The translations under genes and the position numbers were made by a program. From assembly GCA_030295235.1 (NCBI GenBank), contig AP026142.1, positions 434,001 to 498,000 on the forward strand: a stretch of 64,000 bases of DNA, written 5' to 3'. Below, piece after piece: positions 22,603-58,684 of this stretch. The notes beneath the pieces were generated by a model. It was not told the DNA's origin. It worked only from the letters and a program-made list of their open reading frames with translations, and searched no databases. This DNA comes from Fistulifera solaris. Its lineage: Eukaryota. The number at the start of each line of letters is the position of its first letter. Position 1 is the stretch's first letter.

Positions 22603-22933
22603 AAAAGCTCACACAAAAATCCTATCTTTTACTTCAGGCAATCCAACTTCATGTGTAGTGTTTCGTGCAACCCTCAACAAACGGATTATTCTCCTCTCTT
22701 TCTACTTCTCTCTCTCTCCTCTTCACAACCAAAACATAGAAAAATGATGCACAGCGTACGATTAACTTAGTCACTTAAATTATATGGTATGCACAGACAC
22801 GTTAGTACCAAAGGAGTATAGTACAGTCAGCTCTTAGTATTCGAGTAGACACGGTGCATTTTTGTTGTTCGTCTAATAATTATAAAGGTGTCTTGTAACT
22901 CTCAATACGTAGCTGATGGTCGGTCTGATCACT

Positions 22934-23746: not shown

Positions 23747-24230
23747 GTTGATTGAGATTACAAATGATTCGAAAAGGGACCGCGAAGACAGACTGTTTCG
23801 ATGAATTCTTCTAGTAATTAAGAGCTCAATGGTGAAAGAAAGCGCAGATCGATCTTCTTTTCACTTGAAACAATAATCAAACCACATCGCTTCTTTTGTT
23901 TCGAAATGCATCAAAATGGAACAGAAAAAAAATAAGGACGACAACGGCAACGAGAAAGCAACGAAGGGTGTTTTTACACTCCAATTTTGTGTACTTCGGA
24001 AGCTGCGTCAGCCTGTTGCAGAGTCTGGAGCATGCTGCGCCCGTGTTGAACCGGTCCGACATGGTTTCGGATTTTCAACCAGACGGACTTTTTCCAATAA
24101 TGATATGCCAGAGGATCTAGGATACTTGTACGTACACCACGTCATTCTTGAATGACAATGAACTACAAACCTTCTAAAACGGTCTAGTTTCGTGTCATAG
24201 CTCTAGGGAGCTACTTTATTTGTCTTTCTC

Positions 24231-25542: not shown

Positions 25543-27227
25543 TCACGGTTCCATGATCTCTTGCAGCCATGATTCAACTAACTGAGCGACTTGAGAATGC
25601 ACTAGCTGGACATCAGGCGTATCTTCTTGGAGCTGATGTGTCAGATCCGAGTGGTGTGCGCCGTTTTCCATTGTCAACACGAAAACGTCCGCAAACGATT
25701 CTGGATAAGAGGTAGGATACCATCCATCGTTCTTTCCGTTCGTCAAAACCAGCCGCGTCGTGTTTGTCAAGTCCGATAATGCAAATTCTTTTTCCATGTA
25801 GTCGGGATCCATTAAAATATCAAAATTGTTTCGGCAGTAGTCAGCGTCTTCTTCTAGAATGTATGGATGCGGAGGCCACATGCTCTCCTCCGATTTGCCG
25901 ATCATGGGCACCAGATAACAACACAGCGCACCCCACAAGTCATCGTCGTCATCGTCATCGGTTGCAGAACTCATCGAGTGACACTCACTTGAGCCGGAAA
26001 TCATTTCAATATATTCCTTTATGCGCTCTGCGACCGATTTTTGCGTGTTTTCAAAAATCGAGCATCCCTGAAAGAATTGCCGTTCGGGATCGGGTGGGTA
26101 GTAGTCCATCAACGTGTTTCCAAAGTTGGACGATGTGTAGCTAATAATCTCCCGAGCAACGTCTGCACCCAGCACGTCTTTGCTGAGATCCGGACAAATA
26201 CCATAATTTGTCACTTTCGCTGTGAGTTCTCCATGATGAGTAATCGGTTCGAGATCTGCTTGCACTTGGGCTACAACGGTTCGCACGGCATCGGAGCAAC
26301 CTTGTGACACTCGATCCGCTACTTGAGTAATATAATCATAATACGCATAAGGACTACTGGCATGCTGAAAAGGAAGAGACAAGGAGAAGCAGCGTAGGCC
26401 ATATCAATCATGTCCGGATACGATTTGCGCAAGAGAACCGACAAAAGACCAGCATACGATCCTCCGACTGACATGACTGGACAGTAGGTTGCTGAGCCAC
26501 GAGGTCCACAGCCCAGCTCCTCTCTTTTGAATTGAAAAAAATATAGATAGTCTTGTACGGCCTGTCTGGGTGTAAGTTGTTGTCGAATGTCCTGGGTAGT
26601 GAAATTTTGAACCGGAAAAGACTCGCCAAAATATCTACAAAGATCGGAGAAAAGAAGAGCATTAGCACGGTCTTCTTTACTCAAATTCACAGCTCAAGCA
26701 TAAGGTACGCACCGGTGTTCAGGATTGAAGGTGGCGGCACCAAATCGTTCCGCCAAAACTTCCGAGACGAAAGGATAGAGGATTCGTTCCAGGGGCCCTT
26801 CTCCTCCCAAAATGAGGAAAATAGGATAACCCGGACCTTTCCAGTAGTTTAGATTCTCATAATATCGCTGTCGGAATGTGCCTGACGTATCGGGATGGTC
26901 GTGATCGATGAGTTGTTGCGTAAAATACTTGGTTTGATCGATAGGATTCGTCGCGGATACCAGTTCGACGGTGGCAGTTGGTTGAAGCACGGTAGAATCA
27001 GTGGCGGTGTCGGTAAACGCAAAGAGCAACGCTAAAAATGCCCAACAAAAGCCCATTCCTATTGACAACGTTATCCCATGCGTACCGTTGGAAGAACTTT
27101 CGAAGCATGACCCCACGGATGACGAATCCGATGAAAACGCCGAAGAAGAGTCGTAGCTCTTTTCGTCATCTTCTTGGACGTCACTGCACCACAAATCCGA
27201 AAGAATACTTCCGTACGTTGATTTCAT
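25543..27227 (-). CDS. Serine peptidase S28 family (PRCP/DPP7-like) with N-terminal anchor; frameshift near 26370
   Basis: FRQRYY, IFLILGGEGP, EHR/YFGES (intron 26635-26712), GGSYAG nucleophile, NGKNDGW and GAHHSDL. Confidence 0.82.
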
Positions 27228-27569: not shown

Positions 27570-27935
27570 TGTCATCGTCCTCTTCCGACTCGCTGCTCTC
27601 ATTTTGCGCCTCTTTTATCGTTGCTCAACGTAACCATCGATCGATAAGCGCGATATTTGTCACCTCTTAATTCGTCGTACCTGTCCTCATATCGATCTCC
27701 CCCCTTCAAAAAGACGACACGTATCCGCGATGCGATCATTGATCCTCTGTTTTCTTGGTACCCAGACATCCGAGATCCCGTAAACGAAAGACTTCCGAAA
27801 CCGAATCATGAGAGATGATATGGTAACAAAGGTCAGTACAGTCGTGCAGGTCGCCACTTCCGTAATGTTGTCCGCTCTTTGAGGCAGCATTGCGATTTCT
27901 TGTTCGACATCCAACTCACCAGTATTGATGGGTAC
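27570..27935 (-). pseudogene. 3' fragment of the paralogue family (partial duplicate of the copy A C-terminus)
   Basis: Encodes ELDVEQEIAML and ISDVWVPRKQRINDRIADTCRLFEG. Nucleotides 27672-27741 closely match 28141-28210. Confidence 0.75.
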
Positions 27936-28001
27936 GATTACTGTATGTTAGCAAAACAAGCGCCACGGCAACATAGCGAACCTTGAAAGGACTACCAGGT
28001 A

Positions 28002-29498
28002 TCATCTTTCTTCATGATGATTGATGACGCTGCTACTGGCATCGCTATCCTCTCTTCCAGCATGCTGTTCGTCTCCACCTCTCCTTAAGTCGTTAAATGT
28101 AGTTACGGAAAGAAACTCAAGATATTCAGCACCGCTGAATTCGTCGTATCTGTCCTCATATCGATCTTCCTCTTCAAAGAGAAGACATGTATCCGCGATG
28201 CGTTCATTGAGTGACTGTTTTCGTGCCGTCAAGACATCCGAGACTCGTAGATTAGTCCATGAGCGGAACACTTCTGAAACGGAACCAAGGAGAGAAGCTT
28301 TCACACTGGGCTTGCCCAGCGCGTCCGTAGAGGTCGTACGACTCGTTGGAAAGGCCGCCGCTTTAGCCATACTTTCCACTACGTGGAACAGCATCGAAAT
28401 TTCTTCGTCGATAGCCAGCTCATCCAGTATTAATGGGTACACTTGTTGAATAAAAGGAACAGAGGAAAGTTCCGGACGAAATTTGCCGGCTTTAACGATG
28501 ACACAATCAGGGTATGCTCTCAACAAAAGAACTGCTATTTCTTGAACCAGCGGTCGGTTGCAACGATTTGCTAGCATGTGTACTGGTAGGTATCCGTGGC
28601 CTTGCACTTGTTGGCGAATTAAACTTGGGTGTTCGGCTATAAGAAAGCGGCATATCTTGGCGACATTGGGCGTGCATCTGGTGGGAACCCCGGCGTCGAC
28701 AGCATTGCCGAGATGGCGCGCAATTTCGAGATTGAGCTGACGCACAGCTAGTGTAGAGCAAACCTTATGCAACACAGTATACCCCCGGTTGTTTCTGTGA
28801 TAGACTGCTTCGGGGTATTGTTGAGCCATCCAGATGAAGGTGTCCGCATCTGGCACTCCAGCTCCGGACATGCTTATCGTTAGTGGGAAGCCGCCCATGA
28901 ACGCTTCGCTGTCTTTTTCTCGAAGTCCTTGAGGGTATAATTCGTAAAACCGTCGGACAGTTTCATTGGATATTTGTTGACTGGCGTAGAACCGCATCAT
29001 CTTCAAATGAGGTTTCTTTGTTCGGCATAGTTTGTGCTCAAACACCCAGGGGTAGCGCTCCATAATCCAGGGAAACAGCTCGCAGCTCCAAGCAAAATTC
29101 CCTATCAGTTGGATAGGAGTAAGTTTGGGTCCGAGACTGTTTCCACGCCGCTCCCAGAGAAGTGCGTGCGGACTTACTTCAATGAGATACTTGGTAATAT
29201 CGGGGCCTGCGTAATTGAACTTTTCGCAAACAACATCTAATAGCGAGCGCATGTCCCCTTTTTCGTAGGGTGACATAGTCCGAGCAAAGATAGAATGAGC
29301 CGAGACTTCTTCTCTAACGTGTTGAATCCAAGAAACAGCAGCAGCTTCCGCGGTGTCGACACCCGCGCGTTCGACCTCCGCCTCATTGAAGAAAATGTCG
29401 TAACTTTCTTCAAACAGTGCCATAAACTTCATCTGCAACTCCGGGTCCAACGCCGAGACTAAGACGGGCTCAAACGAATCCGGTGTATTGTTTGCCAT
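28002..29498 (-). CDS. Ankyrin-like family protein, copy A (intact)
   Basis: Open frame with the family motifs SPHALLW, YPWVFEH, FYELYPQGL, PDADTFIWMA and GYLPVHMLANRCNRPLVQE, plus an acidic tail. Confidence 0.8.
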   Translation of the reverse strand: MANNTPDSFEPVLVSALDPELQMKFMALFEESYDIFFNEAEVERAGVDTAEAAAVSWIQHVREEVSAHSIFARTMSPYEKGDMRSLLDVVCEKFNYAGPDITKYLIEVSPHALLWERRGNSLGPKLTPIQLIGNFAWSCELFPWIMERYPWVFEHKLCRTKKPHLKMMRFYASQQISNETVRRFYELYPQGLREKDSEAFMGGFPLTISMSGAGVPDADTFIWMAQQYPEAVYHRNNRGYTVLHKVCSTLAVRQLNLEIARHLGNAVDAGVPTRCTPNVAKICRFLIAEHPSLIRQQVQGHGYLPVHMLANRCNRPLVQEIAVLLLRAYPDCVIVKAGKFRPELSSVPFIQQVYPLILDELAIDEEISMLFHVVESMAKAAAFPTSRTTSTDALGKPSVKASLLGSVSEVFRSWTNLRVSDVLTARKQSLNERIADTCLLFEEEDRYEDRYDEFSGAEYLEFLSVTTFNDLRRGGDEQHAGREDSDASSSVINHHEER

Positions 29499-29920
29499 AC
29501 TGAATCTAGAGTGTATGGTGTATGTTATTTTTGATAACAGCAAGACGACGGCGATGATGAGATATACGGATAGTTTCAAAATTCTTTTTGCGATGCAACA
29601 AAAACGTCGTGTGAACCATTAAGGTTCACGTTCGATGGGATTTGATGACGCGAGACGCGAGTGACACAATGAACTAAGCTAACTATAGTGAATTAGCATC
29701 TGTAGGCCTATAGCCAAAAGTGGTTCAGTATCATCATTATCTTACCGAGTACGGAGTATATCTTATCTCTTATGCGTTAGCCGAAAAATATAGCCCCTAA
29801 CAAAACTCTCCTTCTTGATGGCAAAACAATGCTTAACATTTTGGGCTTGGTGCATCCCAGGCTTCCGTACTCGTTAGTAAATTACGCAGTTCAGGCATGA
29901 AAATACTGACGCTATCCAAG

Positions 29921-31366
29921 CTAAGCTCCCCCATAGTTCTCCTCTTCCGAACGGCTACTCGTAGAAAAATTTCCAAAATCGTCCATGTGTGGGTTGAACA
30001 CACGTTCTACGCTTCTTTCAAAATCTTCGTATAAGTCATTCTCGCGATCTTCCGCTTCAAAAATCCGACAGATACCCGCGATGCGCTCATGGATACGCTG
30101 CTTTCGACATTTTAAGACATCCGAGATTCACGATCCAGCCCATGAGCAAAAGATTTCCGCAACGGTACCAAAAAGGGAATGCGTGACAGCCGAGCCAGTC
30201 GGAGCCTCGATAGACATCATCTGAGGTGCTGATAAGACAGCCGCTCCTGGTAGATTGTCTGCGATTAGGGACAACATTAAAATCTCTTCGTCGATTTCCG
30301 TCTCGTTCAGAATCAGAGGGTGCAAGTTTTGAATGAACGGAACTGTACAAAGTGCGGGACGAGATTCTCCCGCCTTCACGCTGACACAGTCAGGGTACGC
30401 TCTCAACAAAAGAACAACTATTTCCTGAACCAGTGGTCGGTTGCAACGATGTGCCAGCATATGAATCGGTAAGTATCCACGATCCTTTACTTGCTCGCGG
30501 GTTAGATCAGGATGGGCAGTAATGAGGATACGGCAAATTTTTGCCAATGTAAGTGCGCGTTGGCTGGACGTTTCCGTACGGTCTTTCCCCATAAATTCAA
30601 AATTCTTTTCTTCTCTTTCACCAAGCCTCAGGCATATTTCATGCAAAATAGTATATCCGCGGTCGATTTTCAAATACACAACGTCTGGGTACTGTTCGGC
30701 CATCCAGATGAAGAGATCCGGGTCGGGTAGTTCCGGTCCAGCTATGCTTATTGACAGAGGGTAGCCGCCCCGTATCCGACACGGTGATCTATCCTTCTCT
30801 TGAAGTCCATGTGGGTATAATTCGTAAAATTTCCACACGGTTTCTGTCGAACAGTGGCCCTCGGCGTAACAACGCATCATGTTCAAGTGTGATGGATTCT
30901 TTCGACATACTTTGTGCTCAAACACCCATACGTAGCGCTCAGCGATCCATAGAAGCAAGTCGCAAGTCTCAGGATAGTTTCCAATCAAATGAATTGGTGC
31001 ACGTTTTCCTGGGCCGCTCCTGTAGCGCCGTTTCCAGAGCAGTGCAGGCGGATTGGCTTCAATGAGCAGCTTGGTACTGGTGTTATGTCGGTCATGCTGG
31101 TCAATCATTTCGCAGGACACATCGAGTAATGACCACATTTTCTTTTTGGTGTTGACGACTCGAGCGAGAATCGGATCCTTACCAAGAGCATCCTTCAAAC
31201 GTTCATAGAACGAACTCGCTGTAGCTTCTAAACCCAAAAGTCGAGCTTCATGTCCAGAGAAAAGATTGTAGCCCTCCCAAAACAAGGAAGTAAACGTTTC
31301 ATGCAGCTCCGGTGTGAGTTCGGTATCTAACACTGGCTTGAATGACTCGGGTATCTCGTATGCCAT
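29921..31366 (-). pseudogene. Ankyrin-like family copy B, with in-frame TGA at 30128-30130
   Basis: Starts MAYEIPES. SWAGS*ISDVL aligns with SWxNLRISDVL of the other copies, and the frame continues to TAG at 29921. Confidence 0.7.
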
Positions 31367-31462
31367 GATGACTTTTGTTTCAAGTAAAGAAAAAATGGAC
31401 TTTTGTTCTTGTTCCATTTTGATGGGTCAACAAAATAGCGCAGACGCGCACACGATGACAAT

Positions 31463-31482
31463 TATACGGAGTACTCCGTATA
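31463..31482. repeat. Perfect 20-bp palindrome TATACGGAGTACTCCGTATA upstream of copy B
   Basis: Self reverse-complementary; built from two overlapping TACGGAGTA/TACTCCGTA motifs. Confidence 0.85.
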
Positions 31483-31969
31483 CAATAATACCTGGTACGT
31501 AATAATGTCGTGACGAAAAATGTCGATGATTGAGATGATGCCGCATGTCTGCCGCAAAAGCTTGCAGAGGGTTAGGGTTACTACTAAGTATGTTCAATAC
31601 CAGCAATAAAACCTTATATTATAGCCTTATAGCGACAACGAAGGTGACAACAACTAGACCAACTCCCTCCGCGCAGATAGTAGCTTGCGACCAAAGGACA
31701 GATCATTCGAATAAATTGAAAGAGTTTTTAGCAATATGTATGGAGTAAACTTTTTAGACGTTCTCCGATCCATATAATTAGAGCTCCATCGTGACACGTG
31801 ACTGGTATCGCCTTCGGAAAAACAGATTGAAAAGAAATCATCATGTTCGTTTGCGTCCCGCTTCAGGCTCAAGTGCAAACTCAAGAACTTTTTGCTTTCG
31901 GCCGGCGGTGCAAGTATCGACTTCGTTATAAGCGTCGTCTCGTTCACCGACGATTTCGAAAGCGCAATC

Positions 31970-33639
31970 TTAATTCCAGTTCTCTTCTTGTACGATTTCG
32001 TCGATTACGTCGCTGTTCCTTCTATTTATTGTTTCAGATTCCCAACCAGCATTCTCGTTGTGAATGCCGGCGGCCTTTTCGTAGACATTCTCCAGCGTTA
32101 TATCGTCACTCCTCACTTCTTCCCCGGGTTCGTCAAAATGCTCATCTACTTGTTCTTCAATGCCATCGGCAACATCGTCGATATCTGTTTCTGAGAATTC
32201 ATCAGGAACTAGATTATCTCCTGGAGGGTACTCTTCATCCCTGTCGCCCCCGTCTCCAAAATCATTGTTGAGGTTTTCGTCGCGGTCTACGTTGTCATCT
32301 TCTTCCCCGATTTCGTTACATGCATTATCGTCCTCTTCGTCCCAATCCACAAGTTCCGCTATTTCGTCAGAAACATCCATGATATTGCAAAAACTTTTAA
32401 TGAAACTTTGTAATACTTGTTTCGCTGGGATTAAATCACCGGAGATTCTCAGCTCTACCCAGCAACGGAAGACTTCAGAAACGGAGTCAAATAGACAAGA
32501 TTGCAAACCTTTGACAGGGGCAGTCGATGTTCCGAGATTCTTTGCTGGCAGATCCGTTGCATCTACCATGCTTTGAGAGCATTGTACTAGCAACGCAATC
32601 TCTTCTTCAATCGCTAACTCTGCCAGAATGAGCGGATGGACGCGTTGGATGAATCGGACACGGGAAAGCTCGGAATACACATTGCCCGCCTTTACTTGCA
32701 CGCACTCGGGGTAGGCTTTCAGTAAGAGAATTACCATTTGCTGTACAATCGGTCGATTGCAACGGTGGGCTAACATGTGAATTGGCAAGTAACCGTTGTC
32801 GTCTTTTTGGCGGATCAACTGAGGATGCTTAGAAATAAGGAAACGGCATAGCTTTGCCATGTTTGGCGAACATTTAAAGGGTTTAGGAAAAGCTGGATGC
32901 GTGTCTCTTTTCTCAGAAAATGAGGCGCAAACTTCGTGAAGGAAAGTGAAGTTTTCACCGTAATGGCTGTACACTGCCTTAGGATACTGCTCTGCCATCC
33001 AGATAAACAGATCGGCATCTGGGCGCTATGAGACAGACCAATCGGCCCTCTTCGTCTTTCTCGGCAAGCCCTTCTGGGTACAACTTATAGAATTTTTGTA
33101 TCTCTTCTATATGCTCCAAGCAACAACCCAAGTCGTGACAGAGCATTTTACCATTGTTAGATGAGGGAATATTGTTGACATAACTCGTGCTTGAATATCC
33201 ACGGGTAGTGCTCCACAATCCAGGGGAACAGCACATCATTATCGGAGTGCCCCGATAGCATGTAAATGGGACCGCGGTAGCCTTTAGGATCAGTATCGAC
33301 CCATAGCAGCGCATGGGGATTGGCTTCGATGAGAAACTTGATTGCTTTGTGACATAAGTAGGAAGCGCTGTCGCACACAATTTTTAGCAGTGTCCACTTG
33401 CGACCATCTTTCTCATAAACAGTCTGAGCAAGAATATTTGCCGAGACAGATTCCTTGATGTGCTGATACAAACGCTCGGCGGCGGATTCTTCGTCGTCGA
33501 ATTCGTCATGCTGGCAATAACCGGCGCAGACTTCATCGTACAAGACGCATGAAACTCACCGTGCAATTCTGCTGGCAATAAATCTGTACAGAGTATACAG
33601 AACTGCTGGCTCCGACTCTTCGGGTATTTCGTATGACAT
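31970..33639 (-). pseudogene. Ankyrin-like family copy C, several frameshifts and deletions in the 5' half
   Basis: Starts MSYEIPEE. Motifs are spread over several frames (ORFs 33157-33543, 32979-33380, 31970-32998), and the GYPL block is deleted. Confidence 0.75.
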
Positions 33640-34684
33640 TATGGTTTTAGTTTTGAATGATTGACTAAAGAGGATGAATTTCAAAACTTGAGAGACGACG
33701 AACAATGCGAACGATACGATAGGATAACAAAATGCCGCGTAAAAGGTTACCTTCGGTAATAAAGGTTACCAGTACGAGATATATTAACTGATGTAATGCA
33801 ACGCGGCTTGACTGTGAACTTTCAGTCCCGGAGGCTAAAGTGGCAACTTTCTCACTAAGGTTTATAATCATTCCGCTTCTTCACATCTTTCCCTTCACAG
33901 CTACGGCATGACTACACAAAAACAAAAGAGGACGGCAGTCAAGGTCAAAAAGGGTTGCCTTAAGAAAACTAAAACTTACTTATTAGACTTTTTATTAGGG
34001 TCTCTACCTCGCGAATATCTCGCGAATATTTCATCGCTTTCCTTTCCACCCCCGACTATTTTTGTGTTTAAACACACTGCGGTGTGAATCTTGTCATTAT
34101 AGCTTTCGCTAGAAACAATGCTGTCTCTGTCACTTCGAGCCGTTTTAAGCGCTTCCTACTTCCATGACACGACAAGATCACTCCGGTTTATCTTGAATCC
34201 ATCGTGACGTCTCGTGACTGCCATCGCCTTCGGAGAAACAGAAGAAGGATCTATATCACCGTTTTCGTTTGAGTCCACATTCAAATGTAAACATACAAAC
34301 TTGATTCCGACCGCCGATATCGACTTCTCTGAGAGCATTTCCTCCTTCATTAGCACGAGCTACATTCCAGATGTTTTCTTGTGCGATTTCGTCAAGTCTG
34401 TCGTTATCTCTATTTAATGGTTCTGGCGCATGATCTTCGCTCCTGTCCTCTCCCGCCTCGGCATTGTTAGGAATGTCATCGATCTCAGAGTTGGCATCAT
34501 CTTGGTTGTTGCCGTGCGAGGCATCGTTTATCGGCCGGAGGACTATCTCCATCCAAGACTCTGTCAGTCCCTAGTCCTGACGTAGCAACACCGGAAGACA
34601 CAATGAATGACTTCCTCAATAGGATCGTAGAATAACGAGCTCTCCATGAGCTCACTCTTCATGTAAACGACTATTGCGTAGCAA

Positions 34685-36036
34685 TTAGAGTCTTCCCCCG
34701 ATATCGTTGTCCTCCCCAATCGAGCTGTCTTCTTCGAAATCTTCGTCTGAATCGTCGTCCCCTTCGAAAAAAAGACCCAAAAGTGCGAACCAGTCTTGAA
34801 CTCTTTGTTTCTCAGTTGATAAATCGGTGACTCTAAGGTTCGCCCAAGAACGATACACTTCTGAAAGGGACCCAAAGAGTGAAGATTCTATTGCGGAATG
34901 GGCTGCTGCAGCTGAGGAAGAAGAGTCGTGCTTTGACGGCATGATTGCTGCTTCGGATAAGTTGTGCGATATGTGTGTAAGAGAGGCAATTTCTTCTTCT
35001 ATTGCCAGTTCTTCAAGAATATTTAGATGCACCAGCCGAACGAACAGAATGGATAAAAGTGTGGGATATTCCAATACGTACACGGGGTGAGCTTTCAGCA
35101 AAAGAACCACGATTTGCTGCACAAGTGGCCGGTTGCAATGATGCGCCAACCTGTGAATTGGAAAAAATCCGTCGTCATCCTTGTGCCGGATGAGATGAGG
35201 ATACTTAGAAATGAGGTGGCGACAAATTTTGGCCGTGTCAGGACAGCATTTATTGGTTTTTGGAACGCGTGTATCTTCTTTTTCGGTAAGTAGGGAACAC
35301 GCCTGATGCAGCATGTTGCAACCTCCAGGTAAAATGTCGTGTACAGCTTCGGGGTATCGTTCTGCCATCCAAATAAATATTTCCGCATCGGGTTCCCTCC
35401 AACCCAGCATTGTCACCGAAAGCGGGTAGCCGAAGCGGTTTGCTTCGTCTTTTTCACCGAGTCCTTGCGGGTACAACTCATAGAACTCTTTACGAGCCTC
35501 AACGTTTTCCAGAGTACACATGTCATTGAAGATACCGTGCACCATCTTTAGGTGGGGCGGAACCTTTGGCTCATTTCACTTTGAAAAATCCATGGAAAGC
35601 GCTCAACAATCCATGGAAGCAACACACTGTGCCAGGTATCCTCCGCAATCATATAAATGGGTGCACCTTGGTGATACGTGTAGGGATCACCATTTGACCA
35701 CAGTAGGGCATGAGGATTTGTCTCGATCACGAGCTGGATTGTTTTGCAGCACTCGCCAAGTGTCTCATCAATAAGAGTTTTCAAAAGCGACTGCGCGTCT
35801 GTTTTGACAATCGTTCGGGCAAGAATAGGATGGGCTGATACCTCTTCCTGTATGCTGTGATGCAAGCGGTCAGCAGCCATTTCTAGAGATTCTACAGATT
35901 CTTCTTCTTCGCCACCTTGAATGATCATTTTAAAGTCGAATACTTCTTTCAGCAACGCATGAAACTTGTTACGCAACTCCGGTGACAAATCCGTATCTGA
36001 CACTGGTTTGACAAGCTCGGTTGATTCGTTTGACAT
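34685..36036 (-). CDS. Ankyrin-like family copy D, one frameshift near 35555
   Basis: ORFs 35548-36036 and 34685-35545 together give the whole family motif series. Confidence 0.7.
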
Positions 36037-36420
36037 GCTGATCTATAAATTTATAAAGGGAAAATAAGCAATGCGACTCTTCGCAGTTGCTTTCGCAAGT
36101 AACGCAGGGTCGAAATGCGTTCTCTTTGAGGTTTTGTGCTTTTGGAGGGAGTGGAGTGCTCACTTATAATGGACCGACGAGCTCGTTCTGGATCCCGGTC
36201 ACAAAGAAACATAGGAGAATGAAAACCGTATTAGTCGCGGGTACGAACGCTATTCAGTAACGCGAAACTCAAAGCAACGCGCGCGCAGCGCAATACCTTT
36301 GTACGTATGTCGTCCGCATGCCGATGATCGACCAAGCATTTTCATGAGGAGAATATATTATTGCTCCATTTTCATTCTTGTTCATTCTCCGTAGTTGCTT
36401 TTACTCTTCGAAACTATAAT

Positions 36421-37912
36421 ATGCAGTGTAATCATCCCTATCACAAGCTCCATTCAATATGCTTGTTGGCAATTGTCTTATCGATATGCCGGACAAATTC
36501 GTTTCTTTTATCACCTGCCCAGCACAGGACGATAGTTCGACCTACTTTTCATCGAACGAAGTTATTTGCCAATAAACGACCCAACAAGCCAACTGGTAAT
36601 ACTTCTAGCAACAAAAACAAAGCAACTAGTAATAATGGCAAAAGATGAAGCCTCAGCAGCAACAACCCCGGGCTTCATCGTCGGCGTCTTTTCCGAACCT
36701 GCAAAAAAGAAAGACAGTAGTAAAAAGACCAGAAGCTCGACACCGCCGTGGCAAGTCCTCAGTGCGAAAGAGGCAAAAGCAAATATATCGAAAGAAATTG
36801 ATCGAAGGAATCAAATCAAAGAAGGTGTGGCTCCCACTCATCAACTTACGGCATCCAAAAACTCATCGCGCGAATCGAAAATCCTGTCGAAGGATTTTCT
36901 CGCGGACGCGGATCGTAAATTGTTGAATTGGAAGCCATTTAATCCTGATAAAGCAATCATGGGTATGAAAATGGTCGGATCTTACTTGGATGACCGTCAA
37001 CTTCCTCCTCGATTGGGTGTACCCGAGGTGGCTTTTCTAGGTCGATCCAACGTGGGCAAATCGAGTCTTCTCAACCGACTCACGGCATCAGCCGTTCAAT
37101 CCTCGACCAAAGCGCGTGTCGGCAAAACACCAGGTGCTACCGCCAGTGTGAATCTGTACTCGTTGTACAATCGCAAAGAAAAGGATCTACTGGGATTTGT
37201 CGATCTGCCCGGGTTCGGTTTCGCTAAATTGTCGAAGGATACCAAAGCGGCCGTCGAAGCTGCAGCCGAAAACTATCTCGGCAAACGAAAAGAACTAATG
37301 TTGGGTATATTATTGGTGGATATTCGGAGAACACCGAGCGAAGATGATCGTGCCGTATTGGCGGCCTTGTTTGATATGGGAGTGCCCATTGCCGTAGTCG
37401 CCACCAAGACGGACAAGATTTCGTCGTCGAATGAAAGAGAGAAACAGCTACTGGAAATCAATCAAGAACTAGGATTGCCCGAAGGTCAACCACTCTGTGT
37501 GAGCAGCGTGACGGGCGAAGGAATTCGCGATTTATGGAGAATCGTATTAGAGGCATGCGAAGCGGGGGTAGCCGAGAAATTCGCACAGTATCAAGAAAAG
37601 TCTGAAGAGATGGACGATGAGGACGACTATGATGATGACGAAAGAGGCCTTGATACGTTCGAAGACTCGGAGGATATAGTGTACGATCAGGGCTATGACT
37701 GGGTTCATGGGAATTATTATGAAGATGATACGGAGGAGGGTGACGACGAAGACGGCGAATATTTGGGCGAAGATGATTCGTACGAATTTGAGGACGACGA
37801 TGATTTCTTTTACGACCTTGACATTTCCAATGTACAGAACAATTCTCCCAAAGAAACACTCAAGGATCTAAGAAAAAGAGTGCGAGATATGGAACGAAGA
37901 GGGGATGTGTAA
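36421..37912 (+). CDS. engB: EngB/YihA-family GTPase, probably plastid-targeted; frameshift near 36645
   Basis: GRSNVGKSS, KTPGAT, DLPGFG, TKTDK and VSS motifs; acidic tail. The signal peptide (TNS-FLL) is in the upstream frame. Confidence 0.85.
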
Positions 37913-37943
37913 ACTGACATTAAGTAACAAATAGGTAGATTAA

Positions 37944-38939
37944 TCAGCACAGTTGATGTGCGCTTTCACTCTTTGCGGATTGCAACAGCGCGTTGCGCAT
38001 CTCGGTACTCTCCTTACTCGAGGAAGGAACAAATGTTGTTTTACAATGGGGAGCGGATCCGACATTTTGAATCATATCAAAGTACTGAGTGAGAAGTAAC
38101 AAATCCATTACATCTTTCGTACCAGCACCTTGCACATTACTGGAAAAGTCCACAATGCTGGATCGCAAACCATCGACAATAGCCTTGCGTTGTTTGGAAA
38201 CTCCCACACCAGACAGATACTTCGATTCAGCTTCCGCTTCAGCCGCTTTGACTTGAAGAATTTTGTCTCCTTCCGCCTTTTCGGCAGCAGCATATTTCAT
38301 ACGCTTCGAACTATTGATTTCGTTCATGGCGTCCTGGTCGTATGCATAGTGTGAGTCTCATGCAATTCAGTAGACTATTCAAGCATCACCAACTTACTTT
38401 GACGCGTTCATCCGGATCGAGATCGGTGATCAGCACTTGTACAATTTGATACCCATAATTGGTCATCGTTTCTGCTAGAGCATTCTTTACCGTCAATGCC
38501 AATTCTTCTTTGGCTTCAAAGACAGCATCGAGTTCCAAGCTTGGGAGTTCAGAGCGCAGGACCTATAGAGAGCAAGAGCGAAAGCGGTAAGAATTTTGGA
38601 GCAAGTTCGAAACAGAAAGAACCGTAGAGTACGTACATCAAAAACATGAGAGGTGATTTGTTGGGTGGGATTGGTGAGCGCATAATAGGCATCAAATACT
38701 TTTTCACGCAACACTTGATACTGGACCGAAACGCCCGCCGTGAGAAAAACATTATCGAGTGTTTTGGTCTCTACTCGCACATCCAGTTGCTGCACGCGGA
38801 AGGACAACTTCCCCACGAGTTGTTCCATGGGACAAATAGTGTAATTGAATCCAGGTTGCACTAGTCGCGAAAAAAGACCAAATCGTTCGACCACTCCGAC
38901 TTCGGCGGTCTGAATGATGAAGCAACAGGGAAAGCACAT
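37944..38939 (-). CDS. SPFH/band-7 protein of the HIR (hypersensitive-induced response) type, 3 exons
   Basis: MCFPCC start, VETKTLDNVF, EAEAESKYLSGVGVSKQRKAIVDGLR and LLLLTQYFD. Introns 38563-38636 and 38334-38397. Confidence 0.9.
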
Positions 38940-39515
38940 GATGACCAATGTCGGTGATGATTCGCAAAAGATGAGGTGCAGTGTACTATGGAGCGACCAA
39001 GACGGATAACGAGATTGCGGTTGTTTTTCGTCTCCAAAGAGTCAATACGTCTTTTATCAATGCCGGGGCGCAATACGATAGGTTGAATACTTCGAACGAT
39101 AAGGGCGGTACTGGTACATAAATCGCAACGAAATCGTTTTGCTGTAAATAATTACAAACAACAATTATTATGCGAAAGCTTGATGATGCGAGATGCGAGC
39201 TTCCGATTCGATTCAGCTCTCTAGTTTCACTATATATATTTTTGTGCCAAAGACGTATCATCACGAATAAAGCAAAGGAGTGAATAAGGTGTCTCGCTTG
39301 CTCGGTGGCTCAACAATTTTGTACACACTTTAGTACCGCTACGAATCCCGGATACGGATACCGCATTCATCGAAACAAAACGATCTGCTATGCCAGCGAT
39401 GATGATCTTTTTCCAGCCTTTTTATCTTCCAGGTTAGGTGACAACAATCATTCACGGTTCATAAGTATACTAAAGCTAAGAAAACACCTGATTAGCATTC
39501 TAGTCAATAAACAAT

Positions 39516-40818
39516 ATGGCACACGATGCGCCCGAGGCAATTCTTGATACGGCACTGCCACCGGAATTGCTACTAGCGTTCCGCGCAATTTTCTCTCATC
39601 CTGCCTTTGACTTTCCCAATTGTTGGAATGGAGATAACGAGCCTGCGGAAGCGGCGGCTGTGCTCTTGTATCAAGACATCAAAAATGAACTTTCGGCGCA
39701 TCCCATCTTGGCGCGTACAATCAACGCAAATGGACAGACACTATTGGAAAAAGTCATCGTAGCCCGAGCCAGTGCCTGTCGGGACACTCTTCAATTCCTC
39801 ATTGAGACAAATCCACACGCCTTGATATGGGAGCATGGCGTTCGTCGTCATCGTCGTGGCAAGTTAATTGCACCGATTCATCGGCTAGGGGAAAGCTTTT
39901 TGGGGAGAAGGCCTACTTCCGTGGATTATGGAGAAATATCCGTGGGTGTTTCAGCACCAACTGTGTCAAGAAAATCCACCACATGTTGCCATGGTGAGAT
40001 CTTGGGTCTACAATCGATGTGACCTGGAAACCGTTCGAAGCTTTTATGAACTGTACCCACAGGGACTCCGCGAGAAAGAAAGCAATTTTGACTAGTATTA
40101 TCCTTTATGGGTAAGTCTAGGGGGCTGTGAAGCGCCCAATTCAGACTTGTTTATCTGGATGGCGAAACAATACCCAGAAGCTGTATATCATGAACCATCT
40201 CACGGTTATACTCTACTGCACGAGTTCTGTGCTTCACTTGTCAAGAGAGTCGTGGAAGATTACGATGGCTGGACCACAATGAGCGTGGGAAACATATGCC
40301 GTTTCCTCATTTCTGAACATTCCAGTCTAGTTCGACAACAAACACAAAGCAAATTTTTGCCCATTCACCTTCTTTCTGGTTCTTGCAAGTGGTCCATTGT
40401 ACCAGAAGTTGTGATTCTTTTGTTGAAAGCGTACCCCGAGAGCGTACAAACAAGGCCTGCGAATCCGTGCGTGATGGACCCTTCTCAGGTCCCATTCATC
40501 CAGGTAGTGTATCCACTGATTTTAAAAGAACTGGAAGTCGATCAAGAGATCTCGTTGCTAGGTCCAATTTTGAAAAATTTAAAGGAGGCGGCCAGAGTTT
40601 CGACTCATCGAATTCCATTGACGAGTGCGAGCGATGATGGTTCCGTACGGAATGCTGATATTCTTGATTCCCTTTCCGAAGTGTTTCAATGTTGGGCCAA
40701 TCAACGCGTTGATGGTTTATCAGCACGGAAGCAGGAAATTGTTAAGTCTATGGATGAACAGGGTAAGCGGTTCGTAGTAGTAAGCGACAACAGCAGTAGA
40801 GATCACTCAGAGGATTAA
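39516..40818 (+). pseudogene. Ankyrin-like family copy E, with a frameshift (~39900) and in-frame TAG at 40093-40095
   Basis: HPILART, NPHALIW, YPWVFQH, FYELYPQGL, FIWMAKQYPEAVY and FLPIHLL motifs. Confidence 0.72.
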
Positions 40819-41505
40819 GATTTGAAAATGATTTGCCTAAGAATGCTTTTGTACCGTAGGATGAGTAGGATGGCGTCTGTTGGAAGCCCATGTGGAGCAC
40901 CAATGACGTTTCTACGAATTTTATCCTCATTTGTAGTAGACACCCCTCTAAACGAAATCACAAGCTACGAATCCATTCATCAATAAACACACTCAAGAGA
41001 ATAGAGACTAGCTGAAACAATGCATGCGGATTCTGGAATAAACTCCGAAATGCGTTTGACGTAGTCTACTGTAGGTAATTATTTGTAGTCGGTTTGGCAT
41101 CGTCGGGGTCCACATTAGCCGGGACTGACACGTAGTTGAATATCGCTGGACGCGACGGTGATACCTGGTAGCGCAGTTTTTCTCTAAAGTCATTACGGAG
41201 TACGGTACTTTTTGTCAAATGCCAACGAGGTAAACCTTACATATAAAACAGTCGATTACAATCATTCAATGTTCCTTATAACCTATAACTCAACGGTCGA
41301 AAACTATGTCCGAAACGGTGCTCATAATATCGGCGCGTTGCATGTCCCTTCCAAAGAGAGCAATAACGTCAGTCACGCCGACCCATTTTTCGACAGTTTT
41401 TGAAGTGAAAGTGAGTTCATCCTTTTAGCTTGTCGCGCAATGCAGGTGAACTCCATTTTTTCGGCATATCTCGACTAGCAGTCCATCCTGATGAATCGAG
41501 CCAAC

Positions 41506-42909
41506 ATGTCGTACGAGATCCCCGAAGCGTTCACGCCTATTTTGAATACGGATGTTTCACGAGAGTTGGATGACAAATTTCAAGCCTTGTTCGATAAAGT
41601 GATCGACCACGATCACAGCAAAGCAGAACATTTCTATCAGCGTATCAAGGAAGAAGTTACCGCGGAGCCCCTTCTGGTCCGAATGATCAACACATCTATG
41701 GAGAACTGGTCGCTACTGGGGGCTGTCTGCAGGTGGGCCAAATTCGACTGCCAAGGAACTATCCTGTTCCTTATTGAGCAGAATCCGCACGCCTTAATGT
41801 GGGTAGGGCGTAGTCGCGACAGGAATAAGAGATGTGCACCGATTCATTTGATAGGGGAAAGCAGCAGAAATTGCACTTGGCTCTTTTGGATTGTGAAGCG
41901 CTATCCGTGGGTCTTTGAGCATAAAGTATGCCAGCGAAATCCGCCGCACTTGAGCATGGTTCGATGCTGGGCTAATGGTGACTGTGAATCGGAAGTAATT
42001 CGATGGTTTTATGAGGCTTACCCACAAGGGCTCCATGAGAAAGAGCGAATTACATCGACCGTCGGAAAGTACGCCTTGATGGTCAGCCTGGAAGGATCGG
42101 AAGAGCCGGACGCGGATATCTTTATCTGGATGGCAGAGCAACATCCCGATGCAATCTATTACAAAACAGTTCGGGGTTATTCAATTTTACATCAAGTTTG
42201 TGAAGCGTTGGGCGCGAAGGAAAATGAGTACCAGTTCGTACCTTTCAAGTGTTCACCAAACATGGCCAAGATAGCTCGTTACCTCATCTCGGAGCATTCG
42301 GATCTGGTTCGCCAACGAATCCACCGTTGCGGGTACTTGCTGATTCATCTGCTAGCGACTCGCTTAAATCACCCTTTGGTACAGGAAATGGTGATTCTCT
42401 TGCTGAAAGCGTATCCCGAGTGTATTCAAGTGAAGGCTGCAAAATGTCGCCCGGAGCTTTCAGTTCTTCCTTTCATACAGGAACTTTATCCCCTGCTCAT
42501 GTCTGAGCTAGAAGTTGATACCGAAATAGCACTGCTTGCTCAGTTATCGGATAGTATGGCAAATGCCGTGCTCATTTCAGGAGATAGTTCTCTCGTCAAG
42601 AACTCGTTTTTGGGTTCCATTTCCGAAATCTTCCGTTGCTGGGCTGATCTTAGAATCGCTCACGTCTCAATTCAACAACAGCGTATCAGAGATGGCATTG
42701 CGGAAATGTGTCATCGCCATGAAGGGGAGGATGTTCCAGACGAATTGGTGGATGAAGACGACTTTTGGAATGAAGTTTGTTTCTCGGATTATGAGAGCGA
42801 CGAAGAACCTGATGAACAAAACGATTCGGACGGAGATAGTGCCTCAGAATTTGAGAGTACCAGTGATAACGTGAGCAGCGACAGTGACAATGAAGATGAT
42901 TGGTATTAA
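41506..42909 (+). CDS. Ankyrin-like family protein, copy F (intact)
   Basis: Open frame from MSYEIPEA with all family motifs and a D/E/S-rich tail. Confidence 0.82.
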   Translation: MSYEIPEAFTPILNTDVSRELDDKFQALFDKVIDHDHSKAEHFYQRIKEEVTAEPLLVRMINTSMENWSLLGAVCRWAKFDCQGTILFLIEQNPHALMWVGRSRDRNKRCAPIHLIGESSRNCTWLFWIVKRYPWVFEHKVCQRNPPHLSMVRCWANGDCESEVIRWFYEAYPQGLHEKERITSTVGKYALMVSLEGSEEPDADIFIWMAEQHPDAIYYKTVRGYSILHQVCEALGAKENEYQFVPFKCSPNMAKIARYLISEHSDLVRQRIHRCGYLLIHLLATRLNHPLVQEMVILLLKAYPECIQVKAAKCRPELSVLPFIQELYPLLMSELEVDTEIALLAQLSDSMANAVLISGDSSLVKNSFLGSISEIFRCWADLRIAHVSIQQQRIRDGIAEMCHRHEGEDVPDELVDEDDFWNEVCFSDYESDEEPDEQNDSDGDSASEFESTSDNVSSDSDNEDDWY

Positions 42910-43553
42910 TAATCTCGCATGTTGCATTCTGCATTCTTGCATCGTGGACTGGTTGACGAATAAGCAAAGAGATTTTCGTGACTCGATACAAATTTCACCT
43001 TGTCCTTATTTGCAAGGCTGTGTTTTGCCCTTTTATGTAACTACTCCGGTGTTTGTAGAATTTCAATATGACTGTTTAGGGTCCCATAATGTACATAGTA
43101 TTGAGACTTTTCCAAGACTGCTTTTCAGTATGGATTTGGGTTGTTCCGTACCAAACTGCTATCGAACCTCTCGACACCATTTGTCTTGAGACAATGGTTC
43201 CTGTCGTTAAAGTCTACTATTAGTACAGTGTTAGAATGCAATGCATGCCCTGTTCTTCGTGATCAACTTAGTTTTTCCGTGCACTGGTTTTCCACATATA
43301 TGATCCATGTCGCAGAGCTCGATGATTCGAGGCAGTTTCAATTTCACAGGCCACTTTGTAAAGGATACTCCTGAGTGATACTCAGTCGTGAGACACGAGA
43401 GGGACCGCAACGCAGCCAGATCGTGCGACGAGAACCTGTTGTGTTTCTGACGCTTTGCTCCTCCTTTTTCACACGACAGGAAACAATTTTGCGATAACTT
43501 TCCTATCCTGTAGACAGGATAGGTATAATTCTGTCATGGAAAAGCCGTTCACC

Positions 43554-45091
43554 ATGTCATACGACATACCCAAATCCTTCTTATCTGTCCCCGATTCAAA
43601 ATTGCCACCTGAGTTGAAAGAAACGTTTCACTCTTTGTGCAAGGAAGCGGAAGACATAATTAAAATGCAGGATTTGACGGAACATCGCGAATCCACAGTG
43701 GCACGCTTCCATCGACGTGTCGTGGACAACTTCTCGGCACATCCTGTCTTGGCCCGCACTGTAGTAGCTGACCATGAGAGAATACGAGAGTTGACACTAC
43801 TGGCGATGGTTTGCTTCAGTGGCTCGATTTGTCGGGAAACCATTTATTTCCTCCTTCAAGTCAATCCATATGCACTGCTGTATGTTTTGTTTATGAATGA
43901 TAGCCTCATTCATGTCATTGCGGTGGATCGGCGGATCTATGACGTGCTCCTTTGGATTGTCGAGCACTATCCGTGGGTGTTTCAGCATGCAGTGTGCCAG
44001 CTAAAGCCACCTCACATTTGGTTGATGAGAGATTACGTCTATGGCCAGTGTAGTCTGGAAACGGTGCGGAAGTTTTACGAACTGTATCCGCAAGGTCTCC
44101 GGGAAAGAGAAACTTCACTACTTATGTTTGGGCCTTGGTATCCTCTATCACTGTGCATTGATGGAGAAAATGATCCCGATGCCAATTTCTGTATTTGGAT
44201 GGCTAAGCAATTCCCTGATGCTGTTTATCATTTACTAACTAGGGGCTTCATGAAATACACAGTGTTGCAAAGGTTTGTTCTTCTCTTGCTAGTACCAGGT
44301 GTACGTCAAATATGGCCAAAATTTGCCGTTTTCTTATTACCGAACATGCTGATCTAATCCGGCAACAAGGATGTTTTGGCGAACCTTTACCGATTGTTAC
44401 TCTGGCAGCACACTGCAACCGTCCCCTGGTGCAGGAAGCGGCTGTTCTCATGATGAAAACGTGCCCCGAGTGCGTGAAAGACAATGCAGGCAACTGGCTC
44501 CCTTCACTTTCTCCGAATCCGTTCATTCAGCAAGTTCATCCGCTTGTTGTACAAGAGTTAGAAATCGAAAGGGAAATTTCTCTTTTATCTCGGATATCGG
44601 ATGATATTTCCAAGGCAGCAATCATGACGAGGCATCAATCTCCGAGGGCAGTCATCATAAAATCACATCTACTTGGTTGTCTTTCGGAAGTCTATTGTTC
44701 CTGGTCAAACCTTCGAATTTCAGATGTCCTGCAAAGACAGAAGCAACAAATACAGGAGCAAATAGCGGAAGTGTGCCGTAAATTGGAAGGGAATAACGGT
44801 TTTGAGATAATGTGGTATGATGGAATTAGAGAAGAATTCGAAATGCTAGATTGGATTGCGCATTACGACTCGAACACTGACGATGAAAATGTTCACTTCG
44901 ACGAAATGGAAGACAGACTGAACGAAGATAGTGAATCTGAATTGGAAAGCGAAGAGGATGAGGAGACGGAGGACGACTACGATGACGATTCTTCTGATGA
45001 AATTGAGGGCTTCACTTATGAAGATGCAGTACGCACATCTTCGATCGAAATGGGCGGTGTCCGGTTATACTATGAAAGGCCTCTCTTGTGA
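43554..45091 (+). CDS. Ankyrin-like family copy G, one frameshift near 44272
   Basis: Starts MSYDIPKS; ORFs 43455-44357 and 44312-45091 join at an A-run. Confidence 0.72.
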
Positions 45092-46104
45092 AGGTCATGC
45101 GTCACACTCTGACAATGACGACAACAACTCTCCCGAAATCGACGCTGATGATAGGTCAAGTGAGAATTGTTTTGTCTGAAGAGGAAGAAGGCAATTATTT
45201 TGACTGGAACTGAGGATGATGAGTATTTGCACGAAGGCCGTTCGTTCACCCAAGGATTAAAAGGACGGCAATGTTCCCACCGGCAACGGTGTCGAATAGG
45301 GCAATGTCTTTCCCATCGGCATTGCGGATAATGAAGTCTTGTATGACGAAAGCTCCCCTGAAGCCGAGAAAGAGGAAGATGTGTTCAATGGCAACAAGGC
45401 AATTGACTACGATCATGCATATCAGTCTCCTGAGACTGACAACGTTCACAAGCATCCTGATGAAGCAGATCAGTACAAAGATGATAGTGTTTTTTTTGAT
45501 GAGATTGGAAAGGTTGACGCACCAGATGAAGTCGAGGAAGAAGCTTGCTACTATGATAATGCAGAATCAGATGAGATCGAATTTAGATCATCTCATACAG
45601 CATTGGTGAGAGCTTGCGTCTATCATCGATGTGACCTCAAACGATGAAACCACGACTTGAGATTGAGGGTAAGAAGACGATGATTTCACCAAAAACGTGA
45701 TGATAACGATGACTGATCTTCCAACAAAATACGCAACGAAGGTTGTAGATACTTTTGTAAGTTTTTAGTTATACTCCGTATAAAAAAAAATTGCAGCTCT
45801 AACCTTACCGTAGAACTCTCCCTGTCGGATCACGAACCACGAATGAATAAAAAGATCTCGCCGCACCCATGTGGCTCTCGGAAGTTCGACGTGTTTGTCA
45901 TTATTATTTCTGAAAAAGGTGAGAAGAGAAATGATTTGTAGTCGAAAGTATTATGTTTGATCTTCCAAAACGACCTGCTCAAGTACCGGTACCTTACGAG
46001 TCTTGTCTCGACCACTTCCCCTTTCTCAATTGACCAAGACTTGTTTTGCTACTTTTCTTTGTCGAACCAGTTCTTGAATTTGCCTGATTGAAAAGTGCAA
46101 CATC

Positions 46105-47635
46105 ATGTCGTACGAAATACCAGAATCGTCAAAGCCGATCCTCGATTCGGAATTGCCACCTGATTTGCAAAAAAAGTTTTATGAATTATGTGTCAGTGCA
46201 GACAGATTGAATACAACGCATGAAATTCTGGAACAGCTGGAATCCTCTGTGACGTTCTTCCATCAAGATTTCGAGGAAGAGTTCCATTCACCTTTCAAGG
46301 AAAAATTCTCGTCACATTTCGAGGAAGAAGTCTCGTCACATTCGCTTTTGGCCCGGACCGTGACGAATGACAGTTGCAAGATATCACTTCTCAAAGTTAT
46401 TGCCACGAGCAGTGGCCATCTTTGTCGGCGAACCTTTGATTTCCTCCTTCATATCAACCCGCATGCACTACTATATCCGGGTTCCCGGAGTTGGAATTGC
46501 CTCATTCATGATATTGCGGCGGATGGAATGAAGTGCTCTTTGCTTCCAGGGATCGCCGAACACTATCCGTGGGTGTTCCAGCATGCTTTGTGCCAGCAAA
46601 GGCCACCCCACATAAAGATGATGAAATGCTATCTCAAGGGCCAGTGCAGCCTAGAAACGGTCCGGACCTTTTACGAATGGTACCCGCAAGGTCTTCAGGA
46701 AAAAATAGTCCGCCGCACGAGTCCGTGTATCCCCTGTCGCTGTATTGTGATGGATCGGCATATCCCGACGCCGATTTTTTTTATCTGGATGGCTAAGCAA
46801 TTCCCTGAGGCTGTTTATGATGAACTCAACTTGGGGCGCACTATGATGCAACAAATTTGTTTTTCACTTCTCAGTACGATCTGGACGCCGGACTTGGTCA
46901 AAATTTTCCGTTTCCTTATTACCGAACATGCTAGTCTCGCATGCGAAAGTGGAAGTTATGGATGGCCTCTGCCGATTCACGCGCTGGCTATAAGTTCCAA
47001 TCGTCCCCTCATGCAGGAAATGGCTGTTCTTATGCTAAAAAGGTGTCCCGACTGTGTTAAAGATAGTTCAGGGAACTGGCTCGAGGAGCTTTCTGCAGTT
47101 GCGTTCCTGCAACAAGTTCATCCCTCTCATTTTGCGCGAATTGGAGATCGATGAAGAGATTGATGTTTTCACTCAGATTTCGATTAATTTTTCAAAAGCA
47201 GCAACTCTGACGTCCCATCAATCTACGAATGCAACGGGGAACATCGGCGTAAAATCGACTCTTTTCAATGCCATCTCCGTAGTCTATTGTTCCTGGTCCA
47301 ACTTAAGAGCCAATGGCGACTTACCGAAGCAAAAGCAACAAATACAAGAACAAATATCGGAAGTATGTCGTCGCTTTGAAGGGGAAGACGATCCTCAGAT
47401 GGTGTGGGAACTAGAACAAATCGCAGACGAATTAGAATTGCTAGGTTTGATGGCGCATTCTGACTACGAATCCGAACGCGATGATGATGGCAATTATAAT
47501 GATCTCTTCCTAAGAGAGGATCGTGCCTCTGGGAATGAGGAAAGCGAAATCGATTCCTTCGGAAGTGAGCGTGACGAAGCTGAAGGGCGAAGATGTTGTT
47601 GGCCTTTCCACCGAAATCGAGTACGCGGTCGATGA
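46105..47635 (+). CDS. Ankyrin-like family copy H, frameshifts at ~46705, ~46780 and ~47125
   Basis: Starts MSYEIPES. YPLSLYCDGSAYPDADFF and PLILRELEIDEEI are in alternate frames. Appears closest to copy G. Confidence 0.68.
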
Positions 47636-48112
47636 CAATTTTACCGTTTGAGTCCAGAGTCCAAAGGATTTCGACATTTCCTTCGATATCGAGCATAATA
47701 TAGGCGTTTATGATGATCGTTTATGCATCTAAGCATGATGGGCATGGCTTGGACAACGTTAGGGAGCATGACTACAATCACGAAAAACGCACGCGGAAGA
47801 TTAACGACGTTCACAACTGGCCGGAGGGATTGGACCATCGTGCGAATGAACGTGATAGTGAAGGGGACCAGGACGATGTACCCGACAAAGTGTAAAGCTC
47901 TCGTGAACGTCTTGACGGAAATGAAATAAAATCCGACGACAGTCGATTATGCCTGCAGCGACATAAAAGCTCATGACGATTGGCTGGTGACCATGACACA
48001 ATGACGATGATTTCGATGAAGACTACGGCACCGTTCAAGAGGTAGATATAATTATTATTTAATTTATTTGAGTGGAGAGTTTGTACGATACATTTGTTCT
48101 TCTCTTTTATAA

Positions 48113-58675: not shown

Positions 58676-58684
58676 ACCGATATT

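Follow-up and report, generated by a model that had tools for sequence, protein, structure and literature searches.

The window analysed here, a stretch of 64,000 nucleotides of Fistulifera solaris DNA (contig AP026142.1, positions 434,001 to 498,000), raises the question of what a series of related genes within it encodes, how old the series is and how many of its members are still intact. An earlier note on this DNA, made from the letters alone, had described the series as eight paralogues and a fragment of an uncharacterised ankyrin-like protein and had put it forward as an undescribed system. The best explanation, to which a probability of about 0.7 is given, sees in the series an old tandem cluster, located on chromosome 14L, whose genes belong to a divergent ankyrin-repeat family specific to Fistulifera or its close relatives. 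The cluster, the copies of which are called A to H in order of position, would have grown through local duplications that predate the divergence of the two parental genomes of this allodiploid. It would now be subject to birth-and-death turnover, with copy C decayed, copies B and E carrying premature stops and one fragment left as an orphan.

Searches of the whole window with copies A and F (tblastn) confirmed the eight full-length paralogous loci and the single fragment, all within positions 27581-47488, and no further family locus was found elsewhere in the 64 kb. The E-values between copies range from 1e-46 to 1e-132 and the amino acid identity per aligned segment from 27% to 50%. The array as a whole spans 27581-47635, with copies A-D on the minus strand, copies E-H on the plus strand and two unrelated genes in between, one encoding an EngB-type GTPase and the other of the Band_7/SPFH type (Table 1). 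Open reading frames (ORFs) were listed for 26-50 kb with the standard code. The ordered series of motif blocks by which the family was first recognised recurs in full in the consensus of both a 21- and a 40-sequence alignment. The array sits on the F. solaris chromosome 14L scaffold (485,476 bp), where family genes have already been deposited. To speak of an undescribed system was an overstatement for a single-gene family. Its named genes are already public as hypothetical proteins.

Age and turnover of the array

The phylogenetic tree was built from 49 rows, comprising the eight window copies (stitched by coordinates, with X at the breaks), 18 hits of the first search and 23 representatives with a minimum length of 380 aa. 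P0013 (identical to B), the shorter representatives and P0284-P0288 were left out. Three groupings were obtained with values of 98-100 in the Shimodaira-Hasegawa-like approximate likelihood ratio test (SH-aLRT): A joins FisN_14Hu219 before B, C joins FisN_14Hh221 before D, and G joins P0145 before H. The group of A and FisN_14Hu219 excluding B and the group of C and FisN_14Hh221 excluding D each had an SH-aLRT of 100. The placement of E and F was not resolved. Adjacent copies thus come out of the tree as the closest paralogues of each other, which agrees with the earlier description of the family as locally amplified and adds that the amplification is ancient. An inverted segmental duplication, in which the minus-strand set would mirror the plus-strand set, was rejected because the tree pairs the neighbours A-B, C-D and G-H.

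The named relatives are all from F. solaris: FisN_14Hu219, 14Hh221, 6Lh255, 6Lh258, 6Hh258 and 9Lh269. The closest of them to copy A is FisN_14Hu219 (64% identity). FisN_14Hu219 and 14Hh221 share a contig of 514,140 bp, and their names put them on the partner chromosome. F. solaris is described in PMC5935921 as an allodiploid with two subgenomes. Because A and C each group with a 14H relative, the A/B and C/D duplications are considered to predate the split of the two subgenomes. None of 40 pattern matches in bacterial and archaeal genomes was confirmed as a relative; together with the names of the relatives, this is consistent with the lineage-specific character claimed for the family from the start. 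Six FisN identifiers of the family are mentioned in no paper of the literature searched, and six gene identifier strings for the region are absent from the supplements of PMC5935921 (11 files). Neither source yielded expression evidence.

DNA similarity among the copies is limited to the coding parts (68.6% over 1,092 nt for G-H and 65.8% over 1,073 nt for A-B), with the exception of a short 3' flank of C and D and of the fragment, where 27652-27775 is 81% identical to the 3' end of A. The flank, which is non-coding and located downstream of C and D (31785-31858 and 34198-34276), is 74% identical between the two and is the sole intergenic similarity in the array. The fragment was in addition 57-63% identical to P0006 (tblastn). 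With the method of Nei and Gojobori, the proportion of synonymous differences (pS) was 0.55-0.77 and that of nonsynonymous differences (pN) 0.33-0.39. The ratio of the corresponding rates (dN/dS) was 0.29 for A-B and 0.45 for G-H, while synonymous sites were saturated in the other pairs. The excess of pS over pN points to long-term purifying selection, also on copies that now look broken. Judged by these divergences and by an amino acid identity of 33-50% between copies, the duplications are old and not recent.

Pairs of closest relatives within the family are 64-87% identical, whereas the GTPase shares 90% identity with the protein nearest to it; several of the relatives in these family pairs are not firmly homoeologues. 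By this difference the family evolves faster than its housekeeping neighbour. Intact, interrupted and decayed copies coexist in the array, which is the pattern of a tandem family under birth and death.

Intact and interrupted copies

The count of eight genes in the earlier note holds for the loci; in the DNA as it reads, a single frame is open throughout in only two of the eight, A and F. These two, which had been singled out as the intact copies, are both uninterrupted. The coordinates and the interruptions of all copies are collected in Table 1.

Table 1. Members of the array and the two unrelated genes inside it (window coordinates).
Feature	Position	Strand	State or basis of assignment	Stored or named protein
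Fragment	27581-27938	-	C-terminal third of an A-type copy, a relic with its own frame change; tblastn with A (residues 353-482)	
Copy A	28002-29498	-	498 aa, uninterrupted single ORF	P0285 (498 aa), identical
Copy B	29921-31417	-	ORF 30128-31417, closed by in-frame TGA at 30128-30130	P0013 (412 aa), stops at the TGA
Copy C	31970-33639	-	Five frame changes; ~23 nt deleted relative to FisN_14Hh221 (three-frame views)	P0176 (296 aa)
Copy D (FisN_14Lh222)	34685-36036	-	One frame change near 35560 (35550-35575), A-run in CAAAGG	P0144 (450 aa)
EngB-type GTPase (FisN_14Lh223), unrelated	36635-37912	+	Pfam MMR_HSR1, E = 2.7e-15	100% identical to the named protein
Band_7/SPFH gene, unrelated	37944-38939	-	Two ORFs 165 nt apart; Band_7 E = 2.8e-13 on ORF 38493-38939	
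Copy E	39516-40818	+	One frame change near 39890 at a G-run; in-frame TAG at 40093-40095	
Copy F	41491-42909	+	472 aa, uninterrupted; family-type start at 41506	P0001 (472 aa)
Copy G (FisN_14Lu250)	43536-45091	+	One frame change near 44250 (44262-44290), A-run in CAAAGG	P0288 (512 aa)
Copy H	46105-47635	+	One frame change near 47125 at a C-run; 24-nt tandem repeat at 46268-46342	

Taken at face value, the interruptions would make the array mostly a graveyard, with six real pseudogenes and only A and F functional, if any. This explanation is unlikely, though it is the strongest of the alternatives. It accounts for the DNA as it reads, that is for the stop in B, the stop and frame change in E, the many lesions of C and the single frame changes of D, G and H, and for the orphan 3' fragment that adjoins A. 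Run-length miscalls are the typical error of pyrosequencing, and stops that arise by substitution are atypical of it. The stops in B and E are taken as real because they are substitutions, which is our own reading and not a proven one. Copy C is most likely a real pseudogene. Its stored protein covers only the last 296 codons, and its relative FisN_14Hh221 is intact, with 599 aa and 73-78% identity to C.

The four single frame changes have other properties. They are found at runs of two to four identical bases, namely in CAAAGG (D and G), GGGG (E) and CCC (H), and the assembly was made by pyrosequencing according to its authors (bioRxiv 10.1101/2021.11.10.468027). The deposited proteins of D and G bridge the breaks; they read Q-K-V across them, as if the A-run had four bases, and outside the break they are 93-100% identical to both flanking frames (98-100% for P0144 of D). 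All broken copies retain an open, family-like frame up to the normal end. In B, where the TGA stands in place of a Leu-Arg of the family consensus, the frame is open and family-like for 68 more codons, to 29921. Because of the short runs in a pyrosequenced assembly, the read-through proteins, the open frames and a pN well below pS for G-H and A-B, the frame changes in D, E, G and H probably reflect run lengths misread by pyrosequencing, or else mutations of very recent origin. The same four points speak against the graveyard, since the breaks would be either artefacts or very recent. The array is better described as an old cluster in which decay has reached some of the copies.

Some further details of single copies were observed. 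The FisN_14Lh222 and FisN_14Lu250 proteins are not colinearly translatable from the window DNA; their annotation either bridged suspected pyrosequencing errors or came from another consensus. The TAG in E is seemingly common to a close relative, as P0192 (192 aa) ends one codon past the same spot, and P0186 (219 aa, 87% identical) begins at the same Met as the second ORF of E. That both halves of E are kept open is odd for a dead gene. The tandem repeat in H is in frame, has 3.1 copies with 78% matches, and adds an acidic, Phe-rich unit of 8 residues to the N-terminal region.

Split genes are also found elsewhere in the window. The genes for 6-phosphogluconate dehydrogenase (50042-51606, minus strand) and a MatE transporter (14825-16446, plus strand) each consist of two adjacent or overlapping ORFs, and a sulfate permease (16861-18206, plus strand) and a Peptidase_S28 gene (25543-27227, minus strand) are split as well. 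The splits in the dehydrogenase and the permease look like short introns, and the gap between the two ORFs of the Band_7/SPFH gene is probably also an intron.

Protein architecture and relationship to ankyrin repeats

The proteins appear to begin with a conserved peptide and a helical hairpin, to continue with six degenerate ankyrin-type repeats and to end in a C-terminal hairpin of two helices of 35-40 residues and a disordered acidic tail. Each repeat is 35-52 residues long and is built of an inner and an outer helix and a third, short one with the recurring motif hydrophobic-x-x-x-Y/H-P-x-x-hydrophobic. AlphaFold gave all-helical models for copy F (21-row alignment; predicted local distance difference test, pLDDT, 82.3; predicted template modelling score, pTM, 0.77) and for copy A (40-row alignment; pLDDT 85.5, pTM 0.83). 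In both models, six helix units precede a pair of long helices (35 to 43 residues) and a tail of low confidence. The internal repetition is also seen when the family profile is aligned with itself, with off-diagonal repeats at P = 6.6e-5 to 3e-4.

Three lines of evidence connect these repeats to ankyrin, in agreement with the degenerate ankyrin repeats proposed in the earlier note. The first is profile homology. When 1.84 billion representatives were searched with the 21-member profile, the matches comprised 401 proteins with E <= 1e-3, 209 with E <= 1e-10 and 99 with E <= 1e-30. Fifteen long or distant hits were scanned, and five of them (P0244, P0252, P0257, P0267 and P0269) passed the Ank-clan cut-off; two of the other ten had weaker Ank matches and eight had none. 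The alignment of the family profile with P0257, a Pfam-verified ankyrin protein (Ank_2 E = 2.1e-46), had a probability of 97.1% and E = 5.2e-11 over 215 columns (hhalign). It pairs 'GYLPIH...LLLKAYPEC' of the family with 'GYLPIH...LLSAYPEG' of P0257. The consensus segments 'APIHLI', 'GxTxLHxVC' and 'GYLPIHxLA' are starts of inner helices of the TPLH type and were aligned to 'GYLPIHLAA' of P0257, although the motif is clear in only three of the six repeats. Among the 21 members themselves, Ank-clan matches below the threshold were obtained for Ank_5 (6), Ank_3 (5), Ank_4 (3), Ank (2) and Ank_2 (1).

The second line is the fold. The structure comparison that had been proposed as a check for copy F was made with the models of F and A, and for each of them the ten best Foldseek matches in the PDB are ankyrin-repeat proteins, with a probability of 0.98-1.00. 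The top matches are Espin1-AR, FEM1C, the tankyrase ARC, ankyrin-1/AnkB and Nas6p, with gankyrin lower. Their assignment to the ankyrin-repeat proteins follows in part from the entry descriptions. The template modelling (TM) score by target reaches 0.63-0.67, the value for gankyrin being 0.67. The third line is the ESM Atlas, where the neighbours are ankyrin clusters, mostly from Bacillariophyta.

Like the canonical ankyrin proteins (Espin1-AR, 5et0; FEM1C, 6lf0; ankyrin-1/AnkB; Nas6p/gankyrin, 2dzn and 3aji), the family has a stacked solenoid of helix pairs with TPLH-like 'APIH', 'GYTxLH' and 'GYLPIH' at the inner-helix starts. It differs from them by its own N- and C-terminal helical modules, by the acidic tail and by the length of its repeats. 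Judged by motif and profile scores, the closest kind is a diatom-type array, here labelled '...LLxAYPEG...' and represented by P0257 and P0269. The family shares the 'GYLPIH...LLxAYPE' unit with these proteins, and its profile finds arrays of this type at E ~1e-20 to 1e-22. P0257 and P0269 are long arrays of near-identical 33-residue repeats (Pfam Ank_2 E = 2e-46 to 4e-51), whereas the repeats of the family are six in number, fixed in their order and each diverged on its own, with extra modules at the ends.

Several results weigh against an intact family of ankyrin-repeat adaptors. The Pfam cut-off was reached by none of the 21 members and by none of 11 ORF pieces of the window. No meaningful match was obtained when copy F and the 21-sequence profile were searched by sequence against the PDB (best E = 2.4 and 3.7). 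The best Foldseek E-values are only 2.9e-4 and 5.7e-4, and the TM score by query is 0.15-0.39, under the usual 0.5. The repeats exceed 33 residues and have a third, short helix that is absent from canonical ankyrin repeats. Six of the eight copies are interrupted, a deposited read-through protein is no independent proof that the true DNA is intact, and the adaptor function is drawn only by analogy. With these points considered, membership of the ankyrin-repeat superfamily by fold and profile homology is supported, though below Pfam cut-offs. The family forms a previously undescribed subfamily; proteins of this kind are very well known, and an old tandem array with turnover is an ordinary setting for their evolution. 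It is still true that no characterised homologue can be named, as the PDB sequence searches and the literature search for the identifiers gave none.

A second alternative, that the proteins are nucleic-acid-binding helical repeats of the mTERF type instead of ankyrin repeats, is very improbable. The Pfam model of mTERF (PF02536) is cross-matched above the cut-off by five of the 15 distant relatives, and one of the 21 members matches it weakly (E = 0.0074). The unit of two helices and a short helix preceded by proline resembles the mTERF motif, with helical repeats of ~30 residues and a proline-containing short third helix. P0257 is, however, far stronger as an ankyrin protein than as an mTERF protein (Ank_2 E = 2.1e-46, mTERF E = 1.6e-8). 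Among the PDB matches listed for the two models, no entry carries an mTERF description, and the TPLH-like 'LPIH' and 'TxLH' stand at the inner-helix starts. The ankyrin assignment is therefore kept.

The commonest match below the Pfam threshold was HTH_upst_double_PIN (10 of the 21 members, best E = 5.3e-4). It falls on the sixth ankyrin-like repeat and was taken as a chance likeness.

Possible function and significance

The proteins of the family are probably soluble and either cytosolic or nuclear. The N-termini are acidic, with a net charge of 0 to -10 over the first 30 residues, and the maximum hydropathy over 19 residues is 1.27-1.66 in a crude scan, with peaks in the core helices of the solenoid; both features suggest solubility. 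For the cytosolic location proposed in the earlier note, with no signal peptide or membrane segment, the sole basis is an N-terminus that is neither hydrophobic nor basic and the absence of a clear transmembrane segment from the crude scan. The acidic tail has at least 30% Asp and Glu in 12 of the 19 members with a tail of at least 20 residues.

The C/D-type relatives P0008, P0284 and P0154, all from outside the window, end in a basic 'KRKR', which we take to resemble a nuclear localisation signal. Copies C and D of the window end earlier, without 'KRKR'.

By analogy with ankyrin solenoids in general, the most likely role is that of a protein-binding adaptor, the repeat surface of which would hold a partner protein. 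The fifth and sixth repeats are the most strongly conserved in the 21- and 40-sequence alignments and probably form a common binding site. Their conservation suggests that the paralogues share a partner and that the repeats are not a hypervariable surface for recognition. A predicted complex of two copies of F (residues 7-417) had a score of 0.00, which in a prediction without controls speaks neither for nor against dimerisation. The flanking genes give no hint to the function.

A more specific version has only a slim chance of being right. In this version, the proteins would be sequestering adaptors like IkappaB, peculiar to this particular lineage of diatoms; a partner that is basic and conserved, for instance a transcription factor or a protein of viral or bacterial origin, would be held by the surface of six repeats, and release or turnover would be controlled by the acidic, Ser-rich tail and the invariant N-terminal peptide. 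IkappaB-type inhibitors have a similar layout, in which about six ankyrin repeats lie between a conserved N-terminal peptide and an acidic tail rich in Ser, Asp and Glu. This is an analogy of layout only, without a link in sequence or phylogeny. If it were true, the birth-and-death turnover, the identity of 64-87% against 90% and the seemingly conserved split of copy E would be signs of ongoing adaptation and not of decay.

The proteins dAnk1-3 of Thalassiosira pseudonana (Tp23225, Tp5147 and Tp21058) are also ankyrin proteins of diatoms, compared here by description only. PMC9894196 describes dAnk1-3 as cytosolic, predicted to be adaptors, without transmembrane or targeting sequences, and reports that the pore pattern of the wall is shaped by dAnk proteins, which are attached to the silica deposition vesicle; ankyrin proteins have also been implicated in wall formation of Seminavis robusta (PMC9894196; PMC11151724). 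That the family is the counterpart of these proteins in the pennate lineage is the least probable of the readings, since dAnk2 and dAnk3 are reported to be common among diatoms and to have recognisable ankyrin domains (PMC9894196), while the family stays under the Pfam cut-offs and its named members are only from F. solaris.

Outside the array, one ORF at 52793-53941 (plus strand) contains an EF-hand pair and a TIC20-like domain (TIC20 E = 6.6e-17, EF-hand_7 E = 3.2e-12), that is, a calcium-binding motif fused to a protein like a plastid import channel. In 21664-24773 and 56690-63769, a protein kinase, a CGLD27-like protein, an FKBP, a P-loop NTPase of the NUBPL/ParA type, an 895-aa Tudor/Agenet protein and a TRAPPC9/Trs120 fragment were recognised.

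Until its partner or its expression has been established, the family is of limited wider importance. A whole subfamily, with about 100 representative clusters at E <= 1e-30, is tied to ankyrin only by profile and fold comparison, and many repeat proteins in diatom genomes are missed by standard domain libraries. The array also lends itself to studying how reliable the pyrosequenced reference is where a base is repeated. F. solaris is an oil-producing allodiploid used in biotechnology, and the old tandem cluster on chromosome 14L, in which copy C has decayed while its 14H relative is intact, is a handy case for following the fate of duplicates in two subgenomes.

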